A stretch of 64,000 nt of DNA from Candidatus Falkowbacteria bacterium RIFOXYA2_FULL_47_19 (lineage in GTDB: Bacteria > Patescibacteriota > Patescibacteriia > Patescibacteriales > UBA12075), in assembly GCA_001780275.1 (NCBI GenBank), contig MFGB01000017.1, positions 59,841-123,840 on the forward strand. The letters run 5' to 3'. The notes under the pieces were generated by a model, which did no database searches, was not told the DNA's origin, and saw nothing but the letters and a program-made list of their open reading frames with translations. Positions 4,073 to 62,410 of this stretch are shown here, in pieces. How positions within the stretch are numbered: the first letter of the stretch is position 1; each line of letters starts with the position of its first letter. A program made the translations under genes and the position numbers.

Positions 4073-4156
4073 AATTTAGATTCAAATAACTCCATCAAAA
4101 ATTGAATATTAAGATTGGAAAATTTTTCCAGGTTTTTTATTTACTTAAAAAATATT

Positions 4157-7100
4157 ATGAAAAAAAGAATTGTTATTTTAATACTGGCGATTTTTTTATT
4201 TCGCGGATTGGCCTTCGGGTATGATAATATGGTGATCCACCCGAAACTGTCCCAGGCGGCTGTCGAAATTTATAACCGGGAAGCCGGGAGAAAGGTAAGC
4301 GCGGAAGAACGGGGATGGATCATCGCGGGCGCGATCGCCGAAGATACTGATCCGCGCTACCTTAACCATTTTTATGACCCGTCGACCGATTCAGGGCTAA
4401 AATATTTAGGCGTCGAGTGGGACTCGGCCCGGGAATGGATCGGGCGGCAAAACAGCGCCACCGGCGATTACAGCGTTAATGCCATTCTGGAAAATTATCG
4501 CCAGGACAACGCCAAGCGCGCCTGGCAGGGGATCGGGCACATTCTTCATCTGTTCCAGGATATGGCCGTGCCGGCGCATACGCGCCTTGATCCGCATCCG
4601 GAGGGCGATCCCTATGAAGGCTGGGCCTGGGGGAATGGTAGTATTAATGCCAATGAAACCAGTAAGATCAATGTAGGCGATTTGTCCGTGGCTATGAAAG
4701 AATTAGCTGCCTACACGAAAGGTAATTTTTTTAGTAAAGAAACTATTAAATTAGAAGACTATACTGTATATCCAATAGAATCGTTAAGCGTTAATGATGT
4801 TGAAAATAAATTTTTAGTGAATGACTTGAATGGTAGTAAATATTATTTAGCAAAAATTGATAATTCTGGTATTTTGCCCGTATATAGTATTGATGATTAT
4901 TATGTCCACCAAGACTACTGGCGTTTATTGGCGCCGAAAGCGGCAGGATATAGCGCCGGGGTGATCGAATGGTTTATTCGCGAGTTTAATAAGATCGACC
5001 AGGAAAAAGCAAAGGAAGAAAAAAGCCTTCTCGGGGCGGTAAAAAAATCTTTCGCCTGGATCGGCGATATTTTTCGGGCGCCGGCGAGCCTGGCCTACGT
5101 TTGGGGCGACGTTTATCGGCCGGCGCGGGAAGAAGTTTTCGAAAAAAGCAAAGAGGCGGTCGAGACGGGAAAAACGGCCGTAGAGGCGGTTAAAAGTTCG
5201 ATCGAGTCGGGGAAAGAAAACGCCCTGGCCGCCATTGACGCCGGATTGGACGCGGCCGAAGACATAAGCGAAGGCATGGCCGAGGGCGTACGGGTGCTCG
5301 GGGAAGCCTTCGAGCCGCCTTCGGCCGCCGCCGGAAACTCGCACAATAAAGAAGGGGGGGGAGACGGACGCGTTTCCGCGGCTTTCGAGGCGAATGATAA
5401 TAAGGTCTTCGGGGATATTACGGAAAATGATGCCGGAGAAATAAGGCTCGCCCGCGTGATCGACGGCGATACGATCGAACTTGAGAACGGGGAAAAGGTG
5501 CGTTATATAGGCGTAGATGCCCCGGAGTTAGGCGCGCCGGGACCCGCAGACGACGAATGTCTGGCTTGGGTTGCGAAAGTTAGGAACGAGCAATTGCTCA
5601 AAGCCGGAAAAATCGAACTTATGGCCGATCCGGGCGGGGAGCGCGATAAGTACGGGAGACTGCTTCGATACGTTTACGCCGGCGATATGTTCATAAACGA
5701 ACGGCTGGCCAAGGAGGGTCTGGCGGAAGCTTATTTCTGCCTGCCCGGCTGGAAAAACTGCCCGTTAGCCGCGGACGAGGCCCGCCGGAAAACGATAGAG
5801 GCAGCGGCGTCCGAAGCGCAATCTAAAAAGCGCGGTATTTTTTCCGGGGTTTGCGATACCGCGCCGGAAAAGATCGAATCGGATAAAGCGCCGGGAGAAG
5901 AAGAAACAGAGGGGGAAATTCCGTTGCCGGGCAAAAAACCGGTAATTCTTTTCGGTTCCGGACCGGCCGCCCCGGTAAATAGCGGCGAAAGCGAAGCAGA
6001 TGATGCGGCCGGGGACGATAGCGGCGACACCGCCGGCGGCGCGGCGGCGCCATCCCCGGACGCGGAAATTTCCGGATCGATCGCGGAGTTTTATCTGTTC
6101 GACCTTCTGACGCACAGCCGGTCTTATACCGCCTCGACCGCGGTCGGCGTTTACGCGGACACGAGCCCGGGATCAATCCCCGGGGAATACCTGCTTGCCG
6201 GCTACGGCGAAACGCCCGATATCTACGGCGAAGGCTGGGTAAGCGCGGTTCCGTTCGTTTACGGGCTCGAGTCGGAAGAAGGCTTTAGGGAGGTGTGTTT
6301 ATGGCTAAAAAACGGGGAGAACCTGGTTTCTTCTTCGACGGCCGCGATCATTCTCGATACTGTCCCGGCCACGCTCGAACTCCTGGCCGCGCCGCCGGTT
6401 TTTTCGAGTTCGACCGAAGCTCTTTTTTTCGCGAGCTCCCCGGAACCGCTCCTGGATCTTTCCTGCCGCCTGGACCCGGGGGCTTCGGCCGCGGCGGATA
6501 TTTCCCTGGATATCGTTTATGACGGCTTGACCGAAGGATGGCATGAGTTTATCTGTGAAGCGGTCGATCTCGCCGGCAACGTATCCGCCTTATCTTACGG
6601 CTGGACGGTCGATCTGACCGCGCCGATAGCCACGATTACGAGCCTGACTATAGACGGCGCGGCAATTATGGCGGCTTGGTCCGGTAGCGACGATCCCTCC
6701 GTTGCCACTAGCGGCATCGCCGCATTTGACCTGGAATTTCGAATCGACGGCGGAGCGTGGCGAGAGTGGCTTACCGGCACGAGCGCCGTTTCGGCCGCTT
6801 TTAGCGCCGCGGAGAGCGGCGAATACGAGGTCCGCGTCCGGGCGCGCGATTCATCCGGCAATACGAGCAAATGGAGCGAGCCGGCGCTAACGACGAAAAC
6901 AGGAGAAATTAAAGCGGACCATATCGTGATAAGCGAAGTCGCCGTAAACGGATATAACAGCCCTGTGCATGAATTCGTGCAGTTATATAATCCGACCGCG
7001 AGCGCCATTGATCTCTCCGGCTGGAAAATACAGTATAAGCCGGCCATTGGCGGCGTTTGGAAGAATAAAACCGGCCCGGACGGACTACCCGCCGCGAATA

Positions 7101-8116
7101 TTCTTCCCGGAGCTTATTTTCTGATCGCGGGAAATAAATCTTATTTTTACGATTATGCCGATTATAATCACGCGGCTATCTGGGAATTCGCCGACGGCGG
7201 CGGCCACGTCAGATTGCTCGACAAGAACGGAGCGGAAGCGGACCGCTTGGGCTACGGTAACGCGGATGAGCCGGAAGGAGAGGCGCAGGATGACCCGCGC
7301 GGTAACAACCAGACTTATAAACGTAAGGCGAAGGCCGATTCTGCCGCCGCCGACATGGCGGAAGGCGGCTATGATTACGCCCTGGGCAACGGCTATGATT
7401 CGAATAACAACCGGTTTGATTTTGTTTTAAGCGATATGTCGCTCCCCCGGGGTTATTTTGAACCTCTGCATCTTTGGTTTTTCAATAAAGATAAAGATTG
7501 CCTCTTAAGCGATACTGTCGTTTATGACTCTATCGGCGGCGATGATTTTATCTCATCGGAACTCGTTTGGCCGGACGGTCAGGGCGATAAGGGCCTGATC
7601 ATGGGGGAGGGTATTAAGATCGGTGCGGAATTAAGCGAACCAGTCGATGCCGGAAGCTTGACAGTAAGTTTTTGGTATAACGATAAAGGCAACGAAGGCG
7701 AAGGTTCGGGCTCGGTTCAGCTGGCCGGCGAAGACGGCGGCATCCTGAAAATCGAATTCGATCCCGATCGGTTTAATATCGCGGTCAACGGAAACAGCAT
7801 GATCCTGGATAAAACCGATATTTATGGAATGTTGCCGGAAGAAGAGAGGGCGGCGGACTGGATTTTCGCGGTCTTGTCACTGGACTCTTTTACCGGCCAA
7901 GGCCATTTCCATGTTAACGGCCGATCCGGGCGCGAATTCGCTTACGGCCGCGGCGATGACCCGGATTATGTCTCGGTAGGCGCGGACGAAGGCTACGAAT
8001 ATCTTATTTATAAATTAAAGATCAGCCGAGGCGTATTGCCGGAGGAGAGAATAAGGCGCGAATACGAGGAGGATGCTTGCGTCCTTAACGATTTATACTG
8101 CCCGGTTTTTTACTGA
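4157..8116 (+). CDS. Large secreted multidomain nuclease-like protein (PLC/P1-nuclease-like Zn domain, SNase thermonuclease, Ig-like region, lamin-tail domain, LamG-like C-terminus)
   Basis: Signal peptide MKKRIVILILAIFLFRGLAFG. The N-terminal domain has His/Asp metal-ligand motifs (HPKL, AEDTDPRYLNHFYDP, HLFQDMAVPAHTR). The SNase core is ARVIDGDTIELENGEKVRYIGVDAPE...RDKYGRLLRYVY...NERLAKEGLAEAY (about 5440-5745). The LTD is HIVISEVAVNG...EFVQLYNPTASAIDLSGWKIQYK...HVRLLDKNGAEADRLGYG (about 6915-7270). The track TTG start at 4115 is replaced by the ATG at 4157. Confidence 0.85.
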   Translation: MKKRIVILILAIFLFRGLAFGYDNMVIHPKLSQAAVEIYNREAGRKVSAEERGWIIAGAIAEDTDPRYLNHFYDPSTDSGLKYLGVEWDSAREWIGRQNSATGDYSVNAILENYRQDNAKRAWQGIGHILHLFQDMAVPAHTRLDPHPEGDPYEGWAWGNGSINANETSKINVGDLSVAMKELAAYTKGNFFSKETIKLEDYTVYPIESLSVNDVENKFLVNDLNGSKYYLAKIDNSGILPVYSIDDYYVHQDYWRLLAPKAAGYSAGVIEWFIREFNKIDQEKAKEEKSLLGAVKKSFAWIGDIFRAPASLAYVWGDVYRPAREEVFEKSKEAVETGKTAVEAVKSSIESGKENALAAIDAGLDAAEDISEGMAEGVRVLGEAFEPPSAAAGNSHNKEGGGDGRVSAAFEANDNKVFGDITENDAGEIRLARVIDGDTIELENGEKVRYIGVDAPELGAPGPADDECLAWVAKVRNEQLLKAGKIELMADPGGERDKYGRLLRYVYAGDMFINERLAKEGLAEAYFCLPGWKNCPLAADEARRKTIEAAASEAQSKKRGIFSGVCDTAPEKIESDKAPGEEETEGEIPLPGKKPVILFGSGPAAPVNSGESEADDAAGDDSGDTAGGAAAPSPDAEISGSIAEFYLFDLLTHSRSYTASTAVGVYADTSPGSIPGEYLLAGYGETPDIYGEGWVSAVPFVYGLESEEGFREVCLWLKNGENLVSSSTAAIILDTVPATLELLAAPPVFSSSTEALFFASSPEPLLDLSCRLDPGASAAADISLDIVYDGLTEGWHEFICEAVDLAGNVSALSYGWTVDLTAPIATITSLTIDGAAIMAAWSGSDDPSVATSGIAAFDLEFRIDGGAWREWLTGTSAVSAAFSAAESGEYEVRVRARDSSGNTSKWSEPALTTKTGEIKADHIVISEVAVNGYNSPVHEFVQLYNPTASAIDLSGWKIQYKPAIGGVWKNKTGPDGLPAANILPGAYFLIAGNKSYFYDYADYNHAAIWEFADGGGHVRLLDKNGAEADRLGYGNADEPEGEAQDDPRGNNQTYKRKAKADSAAADMAEGGYDYALGNGYDSNNNRFDFVLSDMSLPRGYFEPLHLWFFNKDKDCLLSDTVVYDSIGGDDFISSELVWPDGQGDKGLIMGEGIKIGAELSEPVDAGSLTVSFWYNDKGNEGEGSGSVQLAGEDGGILKIEFDPDRFNIAVNGNSMILDKTDIYGMLPEEERAADWIFAVLSLDSFTGQGHFHVNGRSGREFAYGRGDDPDYVSVGADEGYEYLIYKLKISRGVLPEERIRREYEEDACVLNDLYCPVFY

Positions 8117-21733: not shown

Positions 21734-23812
21734 ATGGCAGACAATATCCTTAAAAAAATCGCTTATCCGAGCGCCCGCGGCCGGATTTGGCGTAATTTTT
21801 TCCTGATCATTATTTTGATCGCGGCTGGCGGACTTATTGACGGCGGCCGTTACTATAACCGGGGAGCGGACTGGCTATCGGATAAAACCGGAGAAACGAT
21901 CAATCTGCCCCGGACCAAGGACGTTCCTTTCCGTCTGGGACTCGATCTTTTGGGTGGAACGCAGCTCGTTTATGAGGCCAATATGTCGGATGTGCCCGAA
22001 GCCGATCGGACGAGCGCCCTGGACGGAGTCCGGGACGTGATCGAGCGCCGGGTAAATGTTTTCGGGGTAAGCGAGCCGTTAGTGCAGACCAGCGTATCGG
22101 GGGATAAGTACCGGATCATCGTGGAATTAGCCGGCATTAAAGATATCGCCGAAGCTATCGATATGATCGGCGAGACGCCGCTTCTGGAATTCAAGGAAGA
22201 GGCCGGCGGCGAGCGGCAATTGACCGCGGAGGAGGAGTCCGCCTTGAATGATTTCAACCGCCAGGCCGAAGAAAAAGCGGAAGAAGTATTGGGGAAATTG
22301 ACCGCTGGCGGAGATTTTGAAGCCTTGGCGAAAGAATACAGCCAGGACGAAGCCACCAAGGACGGCGGCGGAGACCTAGGCTGGATAACGGCGGGGGGAA
22401 ACCCGGCCATAGTGGAAGCGGTCAAGGATTATAAGGCCGGAGAGGTGAGCCCGGAGTTAGTGAAAACCGGAACCGGTTATGCTATTTATAAACTTGAAGA
22501 AAAGCGGAACAAGACCAATCCCTTCAATGAAGATGAAACAGAGAAAGAAATAAAAGCGTCCCACATTTTGATCTGCCATAAAGAGGTCGAATCCTGCGCG
22601 AGCGGTTTAAGCAAAGAAGAGGCTTACGCGCGCATCAAGGATATCGAAAATGATCTTACTCCCAAGAATTTCGCGAGTGTGGCCAAAGAATATTCGGACG
22701 ACTCCGGTACTAAGGACCGGGGCGGTGATCTTGGCTGGTTCAGCCGGGGGGATATGGTCAAGCCTTTCGAGGATACCGTCCTGGAGCAGAAAACCGGGAC
22801 CATATCCTGGATCGTGGAAACCGAATTCGGTTATCACCTGATATACAAAGAAGCGGAAAGGACGGTCGAGGAATATCATGTTCGGCGCATAACGATAAAT
22901 ACCATGACCGCGGCCGATGTCGCCGGCGGCGAACCGGAATGGAAGAATACGGAATTGACCGGCAAGCATCTCGAGCGTTCACGGGTGCAATTCAATCCTA
23001 ACGATAATACGCCGGAAGTGGGGCTTGAGTTCGACGGCGAGGGAGCCGAGCTGTTCGCGGAGATCACGGGACGGAACATCGGAAAACCGGTGGCTATTTA
23101 CCTGGACGGTTATCCGATAAGCATACCGACCGTTAACGATAAAATTACGGGGGGCCAGGCGGTAATAAGCGGCCGTTTCAGTATCAAAGAGGCGAAGCTT
23201 CTGGCCGAGCGCCTGAACGCCGGCGCGCTGCCGGTACCGATCGATCTAATAAACCAGCAAACCGTCGGCGCCAGCCTGGGCCAGGCGTCACTCGCGGCCA
23301 GCCTTAAAGCGGGAATGATCGGCCTGGGTTTAGTCGCCCTGTTCATGATCATTTTTTACCGTTTGCCCGGATTATTATCGGTCTTTGCGCTTATTTTTTA
23401 CGGTGTTTTGATTTTGGCGGTTTTCAAGATCTGGCCGGTTACCCTGTCCTTGGCCGGTTTAGCCGGTTTTATCCTGTCCATCGGCATGGCGGTAGACGCC
23501 AACGTATTGATATTTTCGCGTTTAAAAGAAGAATTACGGGCGGGTAAACCGCTTTCCCTGGCTATCGGAGACGCTTTTAACCGCGCCTGGCCGTCTATTC
23601 GCGACGGAAACGTTTCCACTATCCTGACCTGCCTTATCCTGGTGTGGTTTTCCACAAGCATCATAAAAGGTTTCGCCATCACTCTTCTTATCGGTGTTTC
23701 AGTGTCCATGTTCTCGGCGATCATAGTCACGAAGAACTTGCTGCAGCTGGTAGCGGGAGCTTGGCTTGAAAAAAGGCCGGGTTTGATCACCGCGGGACTA
23801 AAAACAAGATAA
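21734..23812 (+). CDS. secD: Protein translocase subunit SecD with two parvulin (PpiC-type) PPIase modules embedded in the periplasmic domain
   Basis: SecD N-terminus (LGLDLLGGTQLVYEA, RIIVELAGIKD, GETPLLEFKEE). P1 head (GLEFDGEGAELFAEITGRNIGKPVAIYLDG). C-terminal 6-TM core (ILSIGMAVDANVLIFSRLKEE). In between are FEALAKEYSQDEATKDGGGDLGWI…GYAIYKL and ASHILICH…FASVAKEYSDDSGTKDRGGDLGWFSRGDMVKPFEDTV…FGYHLIYK. Confidence 0.9.
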   Translation: MADNILKKIAYPSARGRIWRNFFLIIILIAAGGLIDGGRYYNRGADWLSDKTGETINLPRTKDVPFRLGLDLLGGTQLVYEANMSDVPEADRTSALDGVRDVIERRVNVFGVSEPLVQTSVSGDKYRIIVELAGIKDIAEAIDMIGETPLLEFKEEAGGERQLTAEEESALNDFNRQAEEKAEEVLGKLTAGGDFEALAKEYSQDEATKDGGGDLGWITAGGNPAIVEAVKDYKAGEVSPELVKTGTGYAIYKLEEKRNKTNPFNEDETEKEIKASHILICHKEVESCASGLSKEEAYARIKDIENDLTPKNFASVAKEYSDDSGTKDRGGDLGWFSRGDMVKPFEDTVLEQKTGTISWIVETEFGYHLIYKEAERTVEEYHVRRITINTMTAADVAGGEPEWKNTELTGKHLERSRVQFNPNDNTPEVGLEFDGEGAELFAEITGRNIGKPVAIYLDGYPISIPTVNDKITGGQAVISGRFSIKEAKLLAERLNAGALPVPIDLINQQTVGASLGQASLAASLKAGMIGLGLVALFMIIFYRLPGLLSVFALIFYGVLILAVFKIWPVTLSLAGLAGFILSIGMAVDANVLIFSRLKEELRAGKPLSLAIGDAFNRAWPSIRDGNVSTILTCLILVWFSTSIIKGFAITLLIGVSVSMFSAIIVTKNLLQLVAGAWLEKRPGLITAGLKTR

Positions 23813-23823
23813 TTTAGAAAAAA

Positions 23824-24609
23824 ATGTTCACGACCAAAGAGCAGAAGATCATTGCCGCGGTCAGAAGCGGAGGTGAAACTCTCAAAATAAATTTCGGGAA
23901 AAATTTACGAACTTACCGCAAGACGATCGCTTCGGATTTTTTTACCGAGGCGGACATAAAGACGGAAACCAGGATAATCAGCCTCATAAAAAAAGTTTAT
24001 CCGGGAATAAACATATTGGCCGAAGAATCAGGGGTGGAAAATAACGGCTCTGACTACACACTCGTCATCGACCCCCTTGACGGGACCAATAATTTCGCTT
24101 TGAATATTCCTTATTTTTCGGTCGCGGTCGCCCTGATGGAAGGAGAAAAAACCGTTTTCGCGTGCGTTTATAATCCGATTTTGAACGATCTTTATTGCGC
24201 TAAACTGGGCAAGGGGGCCTATAAGAACGGCCGTCGGATGAAAGTAAGCCGTAAAACCAGCTTAAGCCAGGCTACGATCGCTTATGTGACCGGCTACAGC
24301 AATATCAAGGATCTAAGATTATCCATGACAAAAAAGCTTTACCATAAATTCGCCGAAAGGATACTTGATAATTGGTGCCCGACCCTCGACTATTGCTTAT
24401 TAGCTGAAGGCAAGATCGAATGCGTGATCACGGATGACGACGACCTGCATGAATCGATCATCGGTAAGCTCTTTATTACCGAAAGCGGCGGAATCGTTAC
24501 GGATTACCGGGGGGAGAAAAGCCGCGGCTATAAAGAATATAGATTTATTTCCGCTAACGGCAAAAAAATATTAAACGAAGTTTTGCGCATCGTTAATCAT
24601 AAAAAGTAG
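23824..24609 (+). CDS. Inositol monophosphatase family protein (SuhB/IMPase-like)
   Basis: LVIDPLDGTNNF metal-binding motif and a WxxDxxD-like region (CVITDDDDLHE). Confidence 0.8.
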   Translation: MFTTKEQKIIAAVRSGGETLKINFGKNLRTYRKTIASDFFTEADIKTETRIISLIKKVYPGINILAEESGVENNGSDYTLVIDPLDGTNNFALNIPYFSVAVALMEGEKTVFACVYNPILNDLYCAKLGKGAYKNGRRMKVSRKTSLSQATIAYVTGYSNIKDLRLSMTKKLYHKFAERILDNWCPTLDYCLLAEGKIECVITDDDDLHESIIGKLFITESGGIVTDYRGEKSRGYKEYRFISANGKKILNEVLRIVNHKK

Positions 24610-24635: not shown

Positions 24636-25634
24636 ATGTATCAAATAATCCAAAAAAGGAATATTTACCTTTTCTTATCGGGAGCGCTGGTGGCCGCGTC
24701 CATGATCGCTCTGCTTCTCTGGGGATTCAATTACGGGATCGATTTTACCGGCGGCACCCTTCTTGAGGTTCGGTTTAAGGACGGCCGGCCGGCGGTAAAC
24801 GACGTCCGACAGGCGATCGAAGGCCTGGAGCCGGGCAATCTTATACTCCAGCCCATCGGAGAATCGAGTCTGATCCTAAGATTCCAGGACACCAGTGAAG
24901 ACAAACACCAGGCGGTTTTGGAAAAATTGCGGGAATTAACCGGCAGCGGGAAAGAGGAAGGTACGGAAAAAGCCGGTGAAGAGGGCGTGGACGTGTCCGT
25001 CGGTGAAGACGGGACCGTCTTAACAACTCCGGCAGAATCCGCTCCGGAAGCATTCGAAGAATTGCGTTATGACGCGATTGGGCCGGCCATCGGACGGGAA
25101 CTTAAAAATAAATCCATTACAGCCATAATAATTGTTCTGATCATGATAGTTCTCTATATCGCCTGGGCTTTTCGCAAGGTTTCCAGGCCGGTCGCTTCCT
25201 GGAAATACGGTTTAGCCGCCACTTTCGCTTTGTTCCATGATGTTATCATTACCATGGGCGTATTCGCGGTTTTAGGCAGATTTTACGGGGTGGAAATAAA
25301 CACCCCATTCGTAGCCGCGATCCTGACCGTACTTGGGTATTCGATCAACGACACGATCGTGGTTTTTGACCGCATTCGGGAGAATTTACCGAAAAGCGAA
25401 GAAGATTTCGAGAACACGGTTAACGTCAGCGTCAATCAGACGATTACGCGTTCCATCAGCACGTCTTTAACCACCCTTCTGGCTTTGTCGTCTATTTTAA
25501 TATTCGGCGGAGCTTCTATCAGGGATTTCGTTCTGGCTCTGTGTATCGGTATATTTATCGGCACTTACAGTTCTATTTTCGTAGCCAGCCCGATCCTCGT
25601 AATCTGGGAGAAGATGACGGCTCGTAACGCGTGA
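24636..25634 (+). CDS. secF: Protein translocase subunit SecF
   Basis: GIDFTGGTLLEVRF motif and a C-terminal 6-TM core (GYSINDTIVVFDRIREN). Confidence 0.92.
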   Translation: MYQIIQKRNIYLFLSGALVAASMIALLLWGFNYGIDFTGGTLLEVRFKDGRPAVNDVRQAIEGLEPGNLILQPIGESSLILRFQDTSEDKHQAVLEKLRELTGSGKEEGTEKAGEEGVDVSVGEDGTVLTTPAESAPEAFEELRYDAIGPAIGRELKNKSITAIIIVLIMIVLYIAWAFRKVSRPVASWKYGLAATFALFHDVIITMGVFAVLGRFYGVEINTPFVAAILTVLGYSINDTIVVFDRIRENLPKSEEDFENTVNVSVNQTITRSISTSLTTLLALSSILIFGGASIRDFVLALCIGIFIGTYSSIFVASPILVIWEKMTARNA

Positions 25635-35358: not shown

Positions 35359-36234
35359 ATGGATAATGCGCAAAATGAAATTAAAAAATATCCCAAAGCC
35401 ATTACCGGCGCGTTCATATTCAATGACAAAGGCGAGTTATTTTTGATGAAATCGCCCAAGTGGCAGGATAAATATGTCTGCCCCGGCGGTACGGTCGAGT
35501 ATAATGAAAAAATAGAAGATAATCTGAGGCGCGAAGTAAGGGAAGAAACCAACATGGAGATCGCGGATATCGGATTTTTAGGAATTTCCGAGGGCGTCAA
35601 TTTAGGCGATAAATATTCCAAGGCCGCCAAACATCTGATATTTTTTAATTATCAGGCGGTCGTCAGCGGACGCCCGGATATTAAACTGAACGACGAAGCG
35701 GTCAAATACCGGTGGTTGAAACCGGCCGAGTGGCTGAAGAAAGATCTGGGCGAATTTACCAAAGAGGTAATAGAAAAATATTTATCAGAAGACCGTGATT
35801 ACGAAGGCAGGTATAAGCGAGCCCTGGCTGATTACCAGAATCTTCTCAAACAGACGGCCAAAGAGCGGGAAGAATTCATCAAATACGCGAACGAACAGGT
35901 CATTTATGATATTATCCCGGTTTACGATAATCTGCGGACATCAATGGAGCATGTCGACGAGGCTACGGCCAAGAACGGCTGGGTCGAAGGCATAAAATAC
36001 GTGATCAGGCAATTCAAGGATATTTTAGGGAAGATGGGCGTGGAGGAAATAGAAGCCACCGGTAAAAAATTCGATTATCATACCATGGAGGCGCTGGAGG
36101 GCAAGGGAGAGAAGGTCGTAAAAACGGTCAAGCCGGGGTATAAGCTGCACGGGAAGGTGATCATACCGGCTAAGGTCGTTTTGGAAAAAGGCGGGGATAG
36201 TGCTACTGGTGACGTAGCGGATAAAAAACAATAA
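35359..36234 (+). CDS. grpE: Fusion protein: N-terminal NUDIX hydrolase domain plus C-terminal GrpE nucleotide exchange factor
   Basis: Nudix box GGTVEYNEKIEDNLRREVREETNMEI (aa about 40-70). GrpE region YKRALADYQNLLKQTAKEREEFIKYANEQVIYDIIPVYDNLRTS…KFDYHTMEALE…GYKLHGKVIIPAKV. It is a single uninterrupted 291-aa frame. Confidence 0.85.
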   Translation: MDNAQNEIKKYPKAITGAFIFNDKGELFLMKSPKWQDKYVCPGGTVEYNEKIEDNLRREVREETNMEIADIGFLGISEGVNLGDKYSKAAKHLIFFNYQAVVSGRPDIKLNDEAVKYRWLKPAEWLKKDLGEFTKEVIEKYLSEDRDYEGRYKRALADYQNLLKQTAKEREEFIKYANEQVIYDIIPVYDNLRTSMEHVDEATAKNGWVEGIKYVIRQFKDILGKMGVEEIEATGKKFDYHTMEALEGKGEKVVKTVKPGYKLHGKVIIPAKVVLEKGGDSATGDVADKKQ

Positions 36235-59152: not shown

Positions 59153-60742
59153 ATGAAAAATACAAATGCAAAAAGCCAAAGTTCGAATTTACCCCTAATA
59201 TTGATAATATTGGACGGTTGGGGCTTGGCTAAGCCTAATTTGGGCAATGCCATTACTTTAGCTAAAACCCCTACCATGTCAGGATTGGTCAAAAAATACG
59301 CCAATACGAAATTACATGCCCACGGGAAGTTCGTGGGCCTCCCCTTAAAACAGGTCGGCAACAGCGAAGCCGGCCACATGAATATCGGCGCGGGGCGCCT
59401 GGTTGAGCAGGATGCGGTCCTCATCAGCCGCAGCATCAGCGATGGAACGTTTTTCAAAAATTCGGCTTTTTTGGGGGCTGTGCGACACGTCCATAAAATG
59501 AATTCCAAATTTCATATTATCGGCATGTTGTCCAACGGACAGAGTCCGCATTCTGATCCGGGGCATTTAATAGCGCTTTTGCGCCTGCTTAAGGAAAGGG
59601 GGGTAAAGAATATTTATCTACACTTGATCACTGACGGCCGGGATTCACCTAAATATGTTTCTTTAAGCCTTGTGGATGAATTAGAAAAAAAGCTTGTCAA
59701 TAACGAACGGATAGCGACGATCATGGGCCGGTTTTACGCCATGGACAGGAAAAAGTCATGGGACCGAACCGAAAAGGCCTTCCGCGCGCTCGCGTATGGA
59801 CAGGGCCGCGAGGCCAATACCGCTCAGGAAGCCATTACAGAAGCTTATAACCGGGGCGAAAGCGACGAATACATAGAACCGTACATTGTCGGAAACTCGT
59901 ATGGCGGCAACACAAGAATAGAAGACGGCGACAGCGTGGCCTTTATCAATCTGCGATCCGACAGGAGCCGGCAGTTGACAAAAGCTTTCGTGCAGGACGA
60001 TTTCAATAAAATGAACCCCGGTTCTTTTAAGCGCGGTAAAAAACTTAAGCATTTGTATTTCGTGGCCATGACGGATTTCGGTCCGGACCTGAACGAGATC
60101 CTGACCGCCTACCCTTCGATCGATCTGCACAACACCATACCGATGCAGTTGGCCGACCTAAAACAGCTTTATATAGCCGAAACGGAAAAATACGCCCATA
60201 TCACTTATTTTTTTAACGGGGGTTATGCCGGAACGGTGGCGGGAGAGAAACACATAATGATCCCTTCGCCCGACGTCAGGTCATACGACGAAACTCCGGC
60301 CATGAGCTCGGCGTTGCTGGCCAAGGAGGTTATCAGGCATTTGAAACCGGGATCGGGCAAGAACTGGACGTATGATTTCTGCCTTTTGAATTTTGCCGCT
60401 CCCGACATGATCGGCCATACGGGCAACCTGAAGGCCGGTATCGATTGCTGCGGTGAGGTAGACCGTTTATTGGCCAAGATAGTTAAAGCTTATCTGTCGG
60501 TAAATGGAACGGTTATCATCACGGCCGATCACGGCAATATAGAAAATATGGTCAACCTGAAAACGGGCGAGATCCACACGGAACATACGACCAACCAGGT
60601 GCCTTTTGTTTTGGTCAATAAAAAAATCGGTAATAAAATAAAATTAAGGCAAAACGGCACATTGGGCGATATCGGACCGACCATATTGGAGTTGTTGGGC
60701 AGGAAGAAGCCGAGCGAGATGAGCGGCAAGAGTCTTATTTAG
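59153..60742 (+). CDS. gpmI: 2,3-bisphosphoglycerate-independent phosphoglycerate mutase, copy 1
   Basis: ILDGWG, GNSEAGHMNIGAGR (catalytic Ser), PDMIGHTG and ITADHGN motifs are all intact. Confidence 0.92.
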   Translation: MKNTNAKSQSSNLPLILIILDGWGLAKPNLGNAITLAKTPTMSGLVKKYANTKLHAHGKFVGLPLKQVGNSEAGHMNIGAGRLVEQDAVLISRSISDGTFFKNSAFLGAVRHVHKMNSKFHIIGMLSNGQSPHSDPGHLIALLRLLKERGVKNIYLHLITDGRDSPKYVSLSLVDELEKKLVNNERIATIMGRFYAMDRKKSWDRTEKAFRALAYGQGREANTAQEAITEAYNRGESDEYIEPYIVGNSYGGNTRIEDGDSVAFINLRSDRSRQLTKAFVQDDFNKMNPGSFKRGKKLKHLYFVAMTDFGPDLNEILTAYPSIDLHNTIPMQLADLKQLYIAETEKYAHITYFFNGGYAGTVAGEKHIMIPSPDVRSYDETPAMSSALLAKEVIRHLKPGSGKNWTYDFCLLNFAAPDMIGHTGNLKAGIDCCGEVDRLLAKIVKAYLSVNGTVIITADHGNIENMVNLKTGEIHTEHTTNQVPFVLVNKKIGNKIKLRQNGTLGDIGPTILELLGRKKPSEMSGKSLI

Positions 60743-60814: not shown

Positions 60815-62410
60815 ATGGACACACAAGAAAACAATAAACGACCCAAACCGGTCGTTCTGGTGGTTCTGGACGGATGGGGGATAAATCAGCCCTATACCGG
60901 CAATGCTATTTCCCAGTCAAATACCCCCGTCATGAACAGCCTGATCGCGGAATATCCCTCAATGACCCTAAGAGCTTCCGGCGAAGCGGTCGGCCTGCCC
61001 TGGGGGGAAAGCGGCAACAGCGAGGTGGGGCATATCAGCCTGGGGCTCGGGAGAATTTTATACCAGGATCTGCCCCGCATAAATAAGGCGATAAGCGACA
61101 CCAGTTTTTATAAAAATCCGGCTCTGCTCAAAGCGATAGAACATGTCCGAAAGAATGGTTCCTGCCTGCACCTCTTAGGGCTCGTTTCTAACGGGTGTGT
61201 GCATTCATCGATAGACCATCTGCACGCCTTACTGGTTTTGGCGCGGGAAAATAACCTTGAACGGGTTTATATCCACGCTATTCTAGACGGCCGCGATACG
61301 CCTTTCAATAGCGGTGTAAACTTCATTAAAGGTATCGCCCGCAGCATCTCCGAATATAATATCGGTGAAATAGCCACTGTTTCCGGGCGTTTTTACACGA
61401 TGGACCGGAATAATAACTGGGATCGGACAGCTAGAGCCTATTTAAACCTGACGGCCGGGGGGGGCGATCAGGCCGAAGATCCGGTAGAGGCGGTGGAGGC
61501 GAGCTATAAGAATAAGGTTTATGACGAGGAATTCGCGCCAACGGTCATTATGCGAGACGGCAAACCCATAGCCACGGTTAAGGATAATGACGCGGTAATC
61601 TTCTATAATTTCCGCCCGGATCGAGCCAGACAGATCGCCCAAGCCTTCGTTCTGCCGGAATTCGACAAATTCGATCGGCCCAAATTCCTGAATAATTTAT
61701 TGTTTACCGGTTTTACCGAATATGAGAAAGGCCTGCCGATAGAAACGGCCTTTCCGGTCGAGAAAATCGATAATTCCCTGGGCGAGGTGCTAAGCAAAGC
61801 CGGTTTGAAGCAGCTTCGAATAGCTGAAACCGAGAAGTATGCCCATGTTACTTATTTCTTTAATGGCGGACGGGAGGAAAAATCACCGGGCGAAGACCAT
61901 ATCCTGGTGCCGTCACCACAGGTTTCCAATTATGACCTGAAACCGGAAATGTCAGCCCCCGAGGTCACAAAAAAAATACTGGAAATGGTCAATGATGATA
62001 TTTATGATTTTATATTAGTAAATTTCGCCAACGCGGACATGGTCGGGCATACCGGGAATATTCCTGCCGCCAAAAAAGCGATTGAAACGCTTGATGATTG
62101 CGTGGATAAGCTTGTAAAAAGCGTTTTAGCGAAAGGCGGGGCGATCCTCATTACCGCCGATCACGGCAATGCCGACGTCATGTTCAACATGCAAACCGGC
62201 CAGATAGACAAAGAACATACCGCCAACCCCGTTCCATTCATAATCGTCGGCCGCGAATTCGCCGGGCGCAATTTCGGCTGGCAGAACGTAGTGGGGAGCG
62301 ACCTTTCCCTGATTCAGCCCCAGGGCATATTATCCGACATAGCGCCCACGATCCTTAAGATCATGGGAATCGAAAAACCGCCGGAGATGACGGGGATGAG
62401 CCTTATTTAA
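60815..62410 (+). CDS. gpmI: 2,3-bisphosphoglycerate-independent phosphoglycerate mutase, copy 2 (divergent tandem paralog)
   Basis: VLDGWG, GNSEVGHISLGLGR, ADMVGHTG and ITADHGN motifs are intact. By eye it is well under 50% identical to copy 1. Confidence 0.92.
   Translation: MDTQENNKRPKPVVLVVLDGWGINQPYTGNAISQSNTPVMNSLIAEYPSMTLRASGEAVGLPWGESGNSEVGHISLGLGRILYQDLPRINKAISDTSFYKNPALLKAIEHVRKNGSCLHLLGLVSNGCVHSSIDHLHALLVLARENNLERVYIHAILDGRDTPFNSGVNFIKGIARSISEYNIGEIATVSGRFYTMDRNNNWDRTARAYLNLTAGGGDQAEDPVEAVEASYKNKVYDEEFAPTVIMRDGKPIATVKDNDAVIFYNFRPDRARQIAQAFVLPEFDKFDRPKFLNNLLFTGFTEYEKGLPIETAFPVEKIDNSLGEVLSKAGLKQLRIAETEKYAHVTYFFNGGREEKSPGEDHILVPSPQVSNYDLKPEMSAPEVTKKILEMVNDDIYDFILVNFANADMVGHTGNIPAAKKAIETLDDCVDKLVKSVLAKGGAILITADHGNADVMFNMQTGQIDKEHTANPVPFIIVGREFAGRNFGWQNVVGSDLSLIQPQGILSDIAPTILKIMGIEKPPEMTGMSLI

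Follow-up and report, generated by a model that had tools for sequence, protein, structure and literature searches.

A SecD protein with two parvulin domains inserted in its P1 domain, from a Falkowbacteria genome and its relatives

How a chain leaving the Sec channel is handed over to folding factors, in a compartment free of ATP, is still debated. Could the secretion motor carry a folding factor of its own? The question is raised by a gene in a 64,000-nucleotide stretch of DNA from Candidatus Falkowbacteria bacterium RIFOXYA2_FULL_47_19 (contig MFGB01000017.1, positions 59,841 to 123,840). This whole stretch is called the window below, and coordinates are those of the window unless another locus is named. 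An earlier note on this DNA had read a 692-residue frame as a SecD protein with two parvulin-type peptidyl-prolyl isomerase (PPIase) modules built into its P1 domain. The frame proved to be one unbroken open reading frame (ORF; 692 codons plus a stop codon, 21734..23812, + strand), in which Pfam models of both SecD and parvulins and the NCBIfam model TIGR01129 all find matches. The gene encodes a bona fide SecD with a two-parvulin cassette of about 245 residues in the P1 domain. Is the cassette a working prolyl isomerase, and what would it do in a secretion motor?

That the protein is a SecD is clear from its parts. Transmembrane helix 1 (TM1), the P1 base and head, and five more TM helices were recognized by Pfam, hydropathy, AlphaFold2 (AF2) and Foldseek. 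Within the single frame Pfam places Sec_GG at residues 65-84, SecD_1st at 98-156, SecDF_P1_head at 404-501 and SecD_SecF_C at 504-672. TIGR01129, the secD equivalog-domain model, spans residues 68-670 with 361.3 bits (cutoff 244.4). All the features that follow lie on the + strand. The protein starts with a basic cytoplasmic N-terminus and TM1 (residues 1-40, 21734..21853; hydropathy segment 17-40, AF2 helix 14-36), and this N-terminus is kept among 72 homologs. Residues 60-156 (21911..22201) then make up the N-terminal portion of the P1 base, which is covered by Sec_GG, SecD_1st and residues 31-121 of Thermus thermophilus SecDF. It holds the GG motif in the form LGLDLLGG and its final strand is PLLEFKEE. 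The cassette lies between this strand and the start of the P1 head, WKNTELTG. The P1 head subdomain itself (residues 404-503, 22943..23242) is identified by SecDF_P1_head and by alignment with T. thermophilus SecDF from residue 160 onward. It is followed by the TM2-TM6 core (residues 504-692, 23243..23809; SecD_SecF_C 504-672), which carries the proton-path residue Asp588. TM-like hydropathy segments were found only at 17-40 and 518-670, and none within 41-517. As residues 41-517 are free of hydrophobic segments and fall between the first two TM helices, the established topology of SecD places all of them outside the cytoplasm.

The closest match in both sequence and fold is the canonical SecD of T. 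thermophilus SecDF (3AQP, 5YHF). The two have in common TM1, the P1 base and head, the five-TM core and the aspartate of TM4 (D340 in T. thermophilus, D588 here), and the partner SecF keeps its Asp and Arg. Residues 64-160 of the Falkowbacteria protein align with T. thermophilus residues 31-126, and residues 408-676 with 160-428. The cassette thus stands where the T. thermophilus protein has its short 122-159 segment, so that about 38 residues there face a parvulin pair of about 245 residues here. It sits at the boundary between the Pfam models for the N-terminal part of P1 and for the P1 head, that is, in the connector from base to head. This agrees with the earlier placement of the insert on the P1 domain.

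Is the motor intact apart from the cassette? A scan of one genome per GTDB species gave at least 590 relatives; the counts of orthologs given here are for the best 80. Asp588, which aligns with D340 of T. thermophilus SecDF, is invariant (80/80). A cognate secF gene, coding for 332 residues, lies downstream at 24636..25634 (+ strand; TIGR00966, 292 bits, cutoff 160). Its D239 and R272 fall in the motifs of T. thermophilus D637 and R671, numbers that were counted from the alignment. The proton-path residues of both SecD and SecF are thus conserved. Synteny with a 95%-identical ortholog in a Falkowbacteria metagenome-assembled genome (MAG; locus L083) places secA about 3 kb upstream of secD. Unlike T. 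thermophilus, where SecDF is a single protein, this genome has separate secD and secF genes with an unrelated gene between them. The intervening gene (23824-24609, + strand) belongs to the inositol-monophosphatase family (PF00459, E 4e-43) and occurs at the same place in the L083 MAG. In other species secF adjoins secD in 56 of the 66 loci with enough downstream sequence, and the phosphatase stands between them in none of the 66.

The parvulin identity of the cassette is equally plain. In the SecD frame, PF00639 (Rotamase) scores 139.5 bits (cutoff 21.7, E 7.5e-41) and PF13616 (Rotamase_3) 148.1 bits (cutoff 22.5, E 1.9e-43). Each of these two models matches in two stretches, the best being 250-372, and Rotamase_2 matches at 174-266. 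The nucleotides first proposed to code for the parvulins, 22250-22860, correspond to residues 173-376, fall on the two modules and give significant rotamase matches. All the sequence motifs quoted in support of that proposal are present in the ORF. Module 1 (residues 157-262, 22202..22519) is recognized by Rotamase_2 and aligns with residues 165-261 of SurA, resembling the first SurA parvulin, P1. Module 2 (residues 271-378, 22544..22867), which resembles SurA P2 and PrsA, is recognized by Rotamase (277-372), by its catalytic residues and by Foldseek. A single alignment (E 6e-19) runs colinearly through both modules, from 168 to 379, against the P1+P2 pair of E. coli SurA (165-367). From module 2 the chain goes back to the P1 head through a return connector (residues 379-403, 22868..22942), predicted by AF2 to be a long beta strand (379-389) and a short helix (393-397) ahead of the conserved Trp403. 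This last position is W, F or Y in all 80 orthologs.

The structure models point the same way. The AF2 predicted local distance difference test score (pLDDT) averages 80 over the whole protein, and a model of just the P1 domain reaches 84. The parvulin folds of both modules score about 90, and module 1 about 85-93. Foldseek superimposes module 2 on SurA domain II (4g2p) with a template modeling score of 0.86 and a root mean square deviation of 2.1 Å, and on Staphylococcus aureus PrsA (2jzv) with a score of 0.84. It also matches the protein with SecDF (5yhf, E 5e-25) and with SurA (1m5y).

Are both modules of the catalytic kind? Their residues were mapped onto those of human Pin1, whose residue indices were checked. 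The seven Pin1 positions H59, C113, L122, M130, F134, S154 and H157 fall in module 2 on H277 (80/80), D/E323 (79/80), L333 (80/80), M341 (78/80), F345 (79/80), T/S363 (80/80) and H368 (80/80), respectively. Module 2 lacks the basic phosphate-binding cluster of Pin1 and would therefore be a parvulin without specificity for phosphorylated substrates, like SurA P2, PrsA and Par10. Module 1 presents a different picture. It has no first-strand His, and its counterpart of H157 is Ala in this protein and Asn, Glu or Val elsewhere. The equivalents of M130 and F134, the Met/Phe proline pocket, are not conserved in it, and the one catalytic position that is kept is the acidic D205 (59/80). Judged by these residues, module 2 is catalytic-type and module 1 is degenerate; the earlier observation that the His pair is missing from module 1 and present in module 2 is borne out by H277 and H368.

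Two further features of the cassette deserve mention. The first is a pair of cysteines, Cys281 and Cys288 (22574-22597), in the β1-α1 loop of module 2. They are the only extracytoplasmic cysteines of the protein. In 69 of 80 species the protein has the two of them, and in the other 11 it has neither; one alone was never seen. Because they come and go only as a pair, they suggest a disulfide that would staple the loop. The second feature is the junction with SecD. According to the secondary structure predicted by AF2, strand 150-160 of SecD passes straight into the first helix of module 1, a module which at the sequence level has no first strand of its own. We therefore suppose that β1 of module 1 is supplied by this SecD strand, an arrangement that would make the junction rigid.

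How widespread is the fusion? Base, module 1, module 2, head and core occur in one continuous ORF in 80/80 species-level genomes, with an insert length of 226-254 residues. The genomes carry such titles as Falkowbacteria, Magasanikbacteria, Uhrbacteria, Buchananbacteria and 'Parcubacteria/Patescibacteria group', among others. The best 120 protein clusters of a large database likewise all have Rotamase together with SecD domains; they are 59-95% identical and mostly 658-740 residues long and, where named at all, are named only 'SecD'. It is of note that many of the MAGs with a fused SecD (L003, L005, L011, L016 and others) bear the title 'uncultured Gammaproteobacteria bacterium' or 'Hyphomicrobiales' in their TPA_asm binchicken records. 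As their SecD is of the typical Patescibacteria kind, these titles look like taxonomic mislabels.

Not all parts of the protein are conserved to the same degree. Across the 80 species the median identity is 61-64% for the SecD parts (64% for the P1 base part), about 50% for module 2 and 37% for module 1. Module 1 is thus the most variable part, and even so it is kept in nearly all orthologs. Comparison with the L083 ortholog, which has the same ORF, gave ratios of nonsynonymous to synonymous substitution rates (dN/dS) of 0.11 for the insert, 0.054 for the remaining SecD and 0.009 for the P1 head. The values for the separate modules (module 1, 0.057; module 2, 0.116) indicate that both are under purifying selection.

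There are also SecDs of 424-469 residues that have no Rotamase domain, some of them source-labeled Patescibacteria, so a survey of SecDs from the candidate phyla radiation (CPR), as the earlier note advised, finds the insert in every one of the 80 orthologs and not in certain other SecDs. Outside the insert these shorter proteins are 52-57% identical to the protein of the window. In place of residues 157-403, approximately, they have a loop of 0-20 residues between PLLEFKEE and (W)KNTELTG. By these comparisons the insertion is clean and lineage-specific, in a large group of CPR/Patescibacteria. A neighbor-joining tree, a simple and crude method, was made from the non-insert SecD columns of 88 fusions and the insert-less SecDs. 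It gathers 87 of the 88 fusions in one group apart from 15 insert-less SecDs, with very short internal branches. One insert-less sequence (P0328) is nested within the fusion group, and one divergent fusion (P0215) stands beside two insert-less sequences. Poorly resolved as it is, the tree is compatible with one gain of the insert and its occasional loss. P0328, a SecD of 445 residues, may be a case of secondary loss of the cassette. Its neighbor in this crude tree, P0130 (700 residues), is a member of the fusion clade with a divergent segment of about 100 residues where module 1 would be and an intact module 2.

Should the protein then be called a SurA, PrsA or PpiD fused to SecD? The earlier note had likened its order, a degenerate parvulin followed by an intact one, to all three. 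For E. coli SurA (1M5Y) the likeness holds, as SurA too has a degenerate P1 and then a catalytic-type P2, colinear with the pair in the cassette. It does not hold for PrsA and PpiD, which have one parvulin each. Nor does the wider idea of a SurA/PrsA-like arrangement extend beyond the parvulin pair: a Pfam scan of the SecD found neither SurA_N nor any other chaperone-core family. Unlike SurA, moreover, the insert has neither an N-terminal chaperone domain nor a C-terminal tail and is a covalent part of a membrane protein. The NCBIfam SurA model NF008038 gives 86.6 bits, far from its cutoff of 394. The host lineage is not known to have an outer membrane, so that delivery of outer-membrane proteins is an unlikely role for the insert. 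The closest functional analog is PrsA of Bacillus and Staphylococcus (4WO7, 2JZV), a membrane-tethered extracytoplasmic parvulin foldase that serves Sec-exported proteins in a single-membrane cell. PrsA, however, is a separate lipoprotein with one parvulin set in its own N- and C-terminal chaperone domain. The two PrsA models score 100.6 bits (NF002846, cutoff 361) and 94.7 bits (NF002827, cutoff 343), and in the present protein there is no lipobox and the parvulins are internal to SecD. PpiD, which is found with YfgM at the SecYEG exit in E. coli (8ZHT), is also a membrane-anchored parvulin chaperone at the translocon exit, and its inactive parvulin (2kgj) is matched by module 1. It differs in being a protein of its own, in which the only parvulin is inactive and is accompanied by large chaperone domains, and its model NF008054 gives 68 bits (cutoff 493). 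Since it lacks these chaperone cores and scores below the cutoffs of the models, the SecD with its parvulins does not belong to the SurA, PrsA or PpiD family.

Precedents for a PPIase at or near SecDF do exist. That a PPIase can be stationed where chains leave the Sec channel has been established with PpiD (PMC9643414). SurA was shown by Troman et al. 2023 (PMC9987972) to bind the holo-translocon, and in 5/5 of their AlphaFold models its parvulin pair docks on the P1 head of SecDF. PrsA-like PPIase lipoproteins of Mycoplasma pneumoniae cross-link to SecD, and in-cell cryo-electron tomography of Mycoplasma reveals a dome over SecDF-SecYEG-SecA in which the active PPIC domain touches the emerging substrate (bioRxiv 10.1101/2024.09.05.611430 and 10.1101/2025.04.25.650208). 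The dome, built by Mdp444/436/489, resembles the fusion in being an extracellular folding device with a PPIase physically joined to SecDF; of its PPIC domains, which are turned toward the emerging chain, one is active and several are degenerate. It is unlike the fusion in being a non-covalent chamber of large PrsA-like lipoproteins, whereas here two bare parvulins are spliced into SecD itself. The full-text literature searched contains no description of a SecD-PPIase fusion, in keeping with the earlier impression that the architecture is undescribed, and hundreds of examples are present in databases with no annotation beyond SecD.

Given these precedents, what is the cassette likely to do? We think it likely, from the domain content and conserved residues, that in this protein a prolyl isomerase and holdase is bound covalently to the SecDF motor on its extracytoplasmic side. 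Through the parvulin pair, the secretion channel probably has a folding helper fixed in place at its exit. By analogy, the fusion would be the covalent version of the partnerships of SurA with SecDF and of the Mycoplasma PrsA-like proteins with SecDF. The following sequence of events can be proposed. SecA and SecYEG would push the unfolded preprotein outward, and the P1 head would grip the chain and swing to pull it, driven by proton flow via SecD Asp588 and SecF Asp239/Arg272. Lying at the neck of the head, the two parvulins would meet the same chain, and module 2 would isomerize its Xaa-Pro bonds while the degenerate module 1 would act as a binding surface or spacer, like SurA P1 and the PpiD parvulin. 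The chain would then be let go and fold outside the membrane. The P1 domain would take the role of the chaperone core found in SurA, PrsA and trigger factor, and the organism would thereby have a PrsA-like foldase fixed to its translocon.

The PPIase activity, the action on Sec substrates and the coupling to head movement are here inferred from sequence, and several points weigh against this scheme. At the position of Pin1 C113 most orthologs have Glu as their acidic residue, and bacterial parvulins usually have Asp. In SurA P1 a His is retained although the domain is inactive, and Pin1 can remain active when its His residues are mutated; residues alone are accordingly no proof that module 2 is active. 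Finally, AF2 predicts the orientation of the parvulins against the head with low confidence (predicted template modeling score, pTM, 0.45 for the full protein and 0.51 for P1 alone), so that a contact with the substrate groove of the head is conjectural.

More can be learned about the cassette from its relatives outside SecD. A search with the insert alone against 1.84 billion cluster representatives gave 30 matches at E<=1e-30. Among the best 150 matches, 26 contain parts of SecD, and the remaining 124, which have 2-5 modules, are of the parvulin-only kind. About ten clusters (P0152, P0153, P0199, P0246, P0272-P0278, P0283; loci L081-L091, e.g. L090 10001-10846) consist of proteins of about 280 residues with an N-terminal TM anchor, SecDF_P1_head and one parvulin like module 2. 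They have the motifs ASHLLIC...C and ETEFGYHLIYK and the Cys pair, and they have no SecD membrane core. In four loci (P0199, P0153 and P0273 among them) this head-plus-parvulin gene belongs to a conserved cassette with zinc-ribbon membrane proteins and a trypsin-like protease that often contains TPR repeats. Some of the loci also have flanking helix-turn-helix (HTH) regulators. At L090 the cassette is adjoined by a large serine recombinase and may therefore be a mobile element. The P0246 locus (L088) differs, with a HigB toxin, a Phage_P4_cII-like protein and an HTH/M78 protein. A phage origin for these stand-alone proteins was considered and rejected, as the parvulin genes that a scan of IMG/VR viral contigs brought up were all generic and without the head domain. 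A further variant is P0230, a predicted lipoprotein of 604 residues (lipobox LTGC) with a P1-base-like region, three parvulin modules and SecDF_P1_head, and again no membrane core, which gives it the look of a PrsA-like protein made from a SecD P1 scaffold. That the head and a parvulin occur together on their own suggests that the two work as a functional unit. Apart from the modules themselves, hidden Markov models of the modules detected no parvulin gene, and so no free-standing prsA or ppiD, when run on all six reading frames of the 64-kb window and on flanks of about 12 kb at the 80 loci, a sample too small to speak for genome-wide absence.

These relatives also bear on a different view of the cassette, in which the parvulin pair is a non-catalytic holdase, a binding extension that would widen the grip of the P1 head on unfolded chains, like the PpiD parvulin and SurA P1, and to which prolyl isomerization is irrelevant. 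The stand-alone and three-module variants show the modules used as building blocks; module 1 is plainly degenerate, and the PpiD parvulin that it matches is inactive. SurA itself acts as a chaperone independently of its PPIase activity. Against all this stands module 2, in which the whole catalytic and proline-pocket set is kept in 78-80 of the 80 species despite an identity of only about 50%. Such retention is hard to square with a generic binding role, and we give a purely non-catalytic cassette a small chance.

Alternatively, the insert could be a regulatory or docking module that gates the F/I swing of the P1 head or that tethers SecDF to some other part of the envelope, for example the cell wall, the S-layer or pilus machinery. 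Its position in the base-head connector, the hinge region of SecDF, would suit such a function, and a SecD strand shared with module 1, as the AF2 secondary structure suggests, would couple that module rigidly to the hinge. But no partner is known, the conserved residues make up a prolyl-peptide binding site and not a novel interface, and the precedents elsewhere point to substrate folding. We regard this explanation as quite improbable. As for an artefact, by which a chimeric assembly or a missed frameshift would have joined secD to a PPIase gene, the general hazard of MAGs and a slight dip in GC over the insert (0.46-0.51, against 0.54-0.59 on either side) are outweighed to the point of ruling it out by the same continuous ORF in 80/80 independent assemblies and 120/120 best clusters, by the low dN/dS over the insert (0.11) relative to the 95%-identical MAG, and by the reading frame, which has no stop or frameshift and resumes as SecD on both sides.

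To return to the preferred reading, a SecDF motor with its own isomerase and holdase, a bolder form of it can be envisaged. Since module 1 appears to borrow its first strand from a SecD strand at the hinge, the swing of the P1 head driven by the proton motive force might be passed on mechanically to the parvulin pair, giving an energy-coupled foldase outside the cell, where there is no ATP. The P1 head would be the chaperone core of this foldase, and the head-plus-parvulin unit would have been spun off as the stand-alone proteins. This set of proposals, taken as a whole, is speculative and we think it rather unlikely. If true, the fusion would be a 'Rosetta stone' for a general and ancient docking of parvulins (SurA, PrsA, PpiD) on the SecDF head.

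Irrespective of that bolder form, a covalent SecD-parvulin fusion that is conserved throughout a major CPR clade provides independent evolutionary evidence for a partnership of SecDF with parvulins. It offers a compact, single-chain object in which to study this partnership, and it shows how genome-reduced bacteria may consolidate the proteostasis of their envelope. It also flags a family that is now annotated only as 'SecD'.

Some other genes of the window are of interest in their own right. No tRNA was found by ARAGORN, and no Rfam family at gathering score, in the 64 kb. A protein of 291 residues (35359-36234, + strand) joins an N-terminal NUDIX domain (16-140) to GrpE (134-275). Its gene lies within a chaperone cluster at about 34.6-43.1 kb with the order hrcA, NUDIX-grpE, hsp20, dnaK, dnaJ and an htrA-like gene (Trypsin_2+PDZ). 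Two adjoining paralogous genes for cofactor-independent phosphoglycerate mutase (iPGM_N + Metalloenzyme) are found at 59153-60742 and 60815-62410 (both + strand), after pgk and eno. Lastly, a protein of 1333 residues (4115-8116, + strand) has staphylococcal-nuclease, lamin-tail and Ig-like domains, and on the strength of these is probably a large secreted or surface nuclease.

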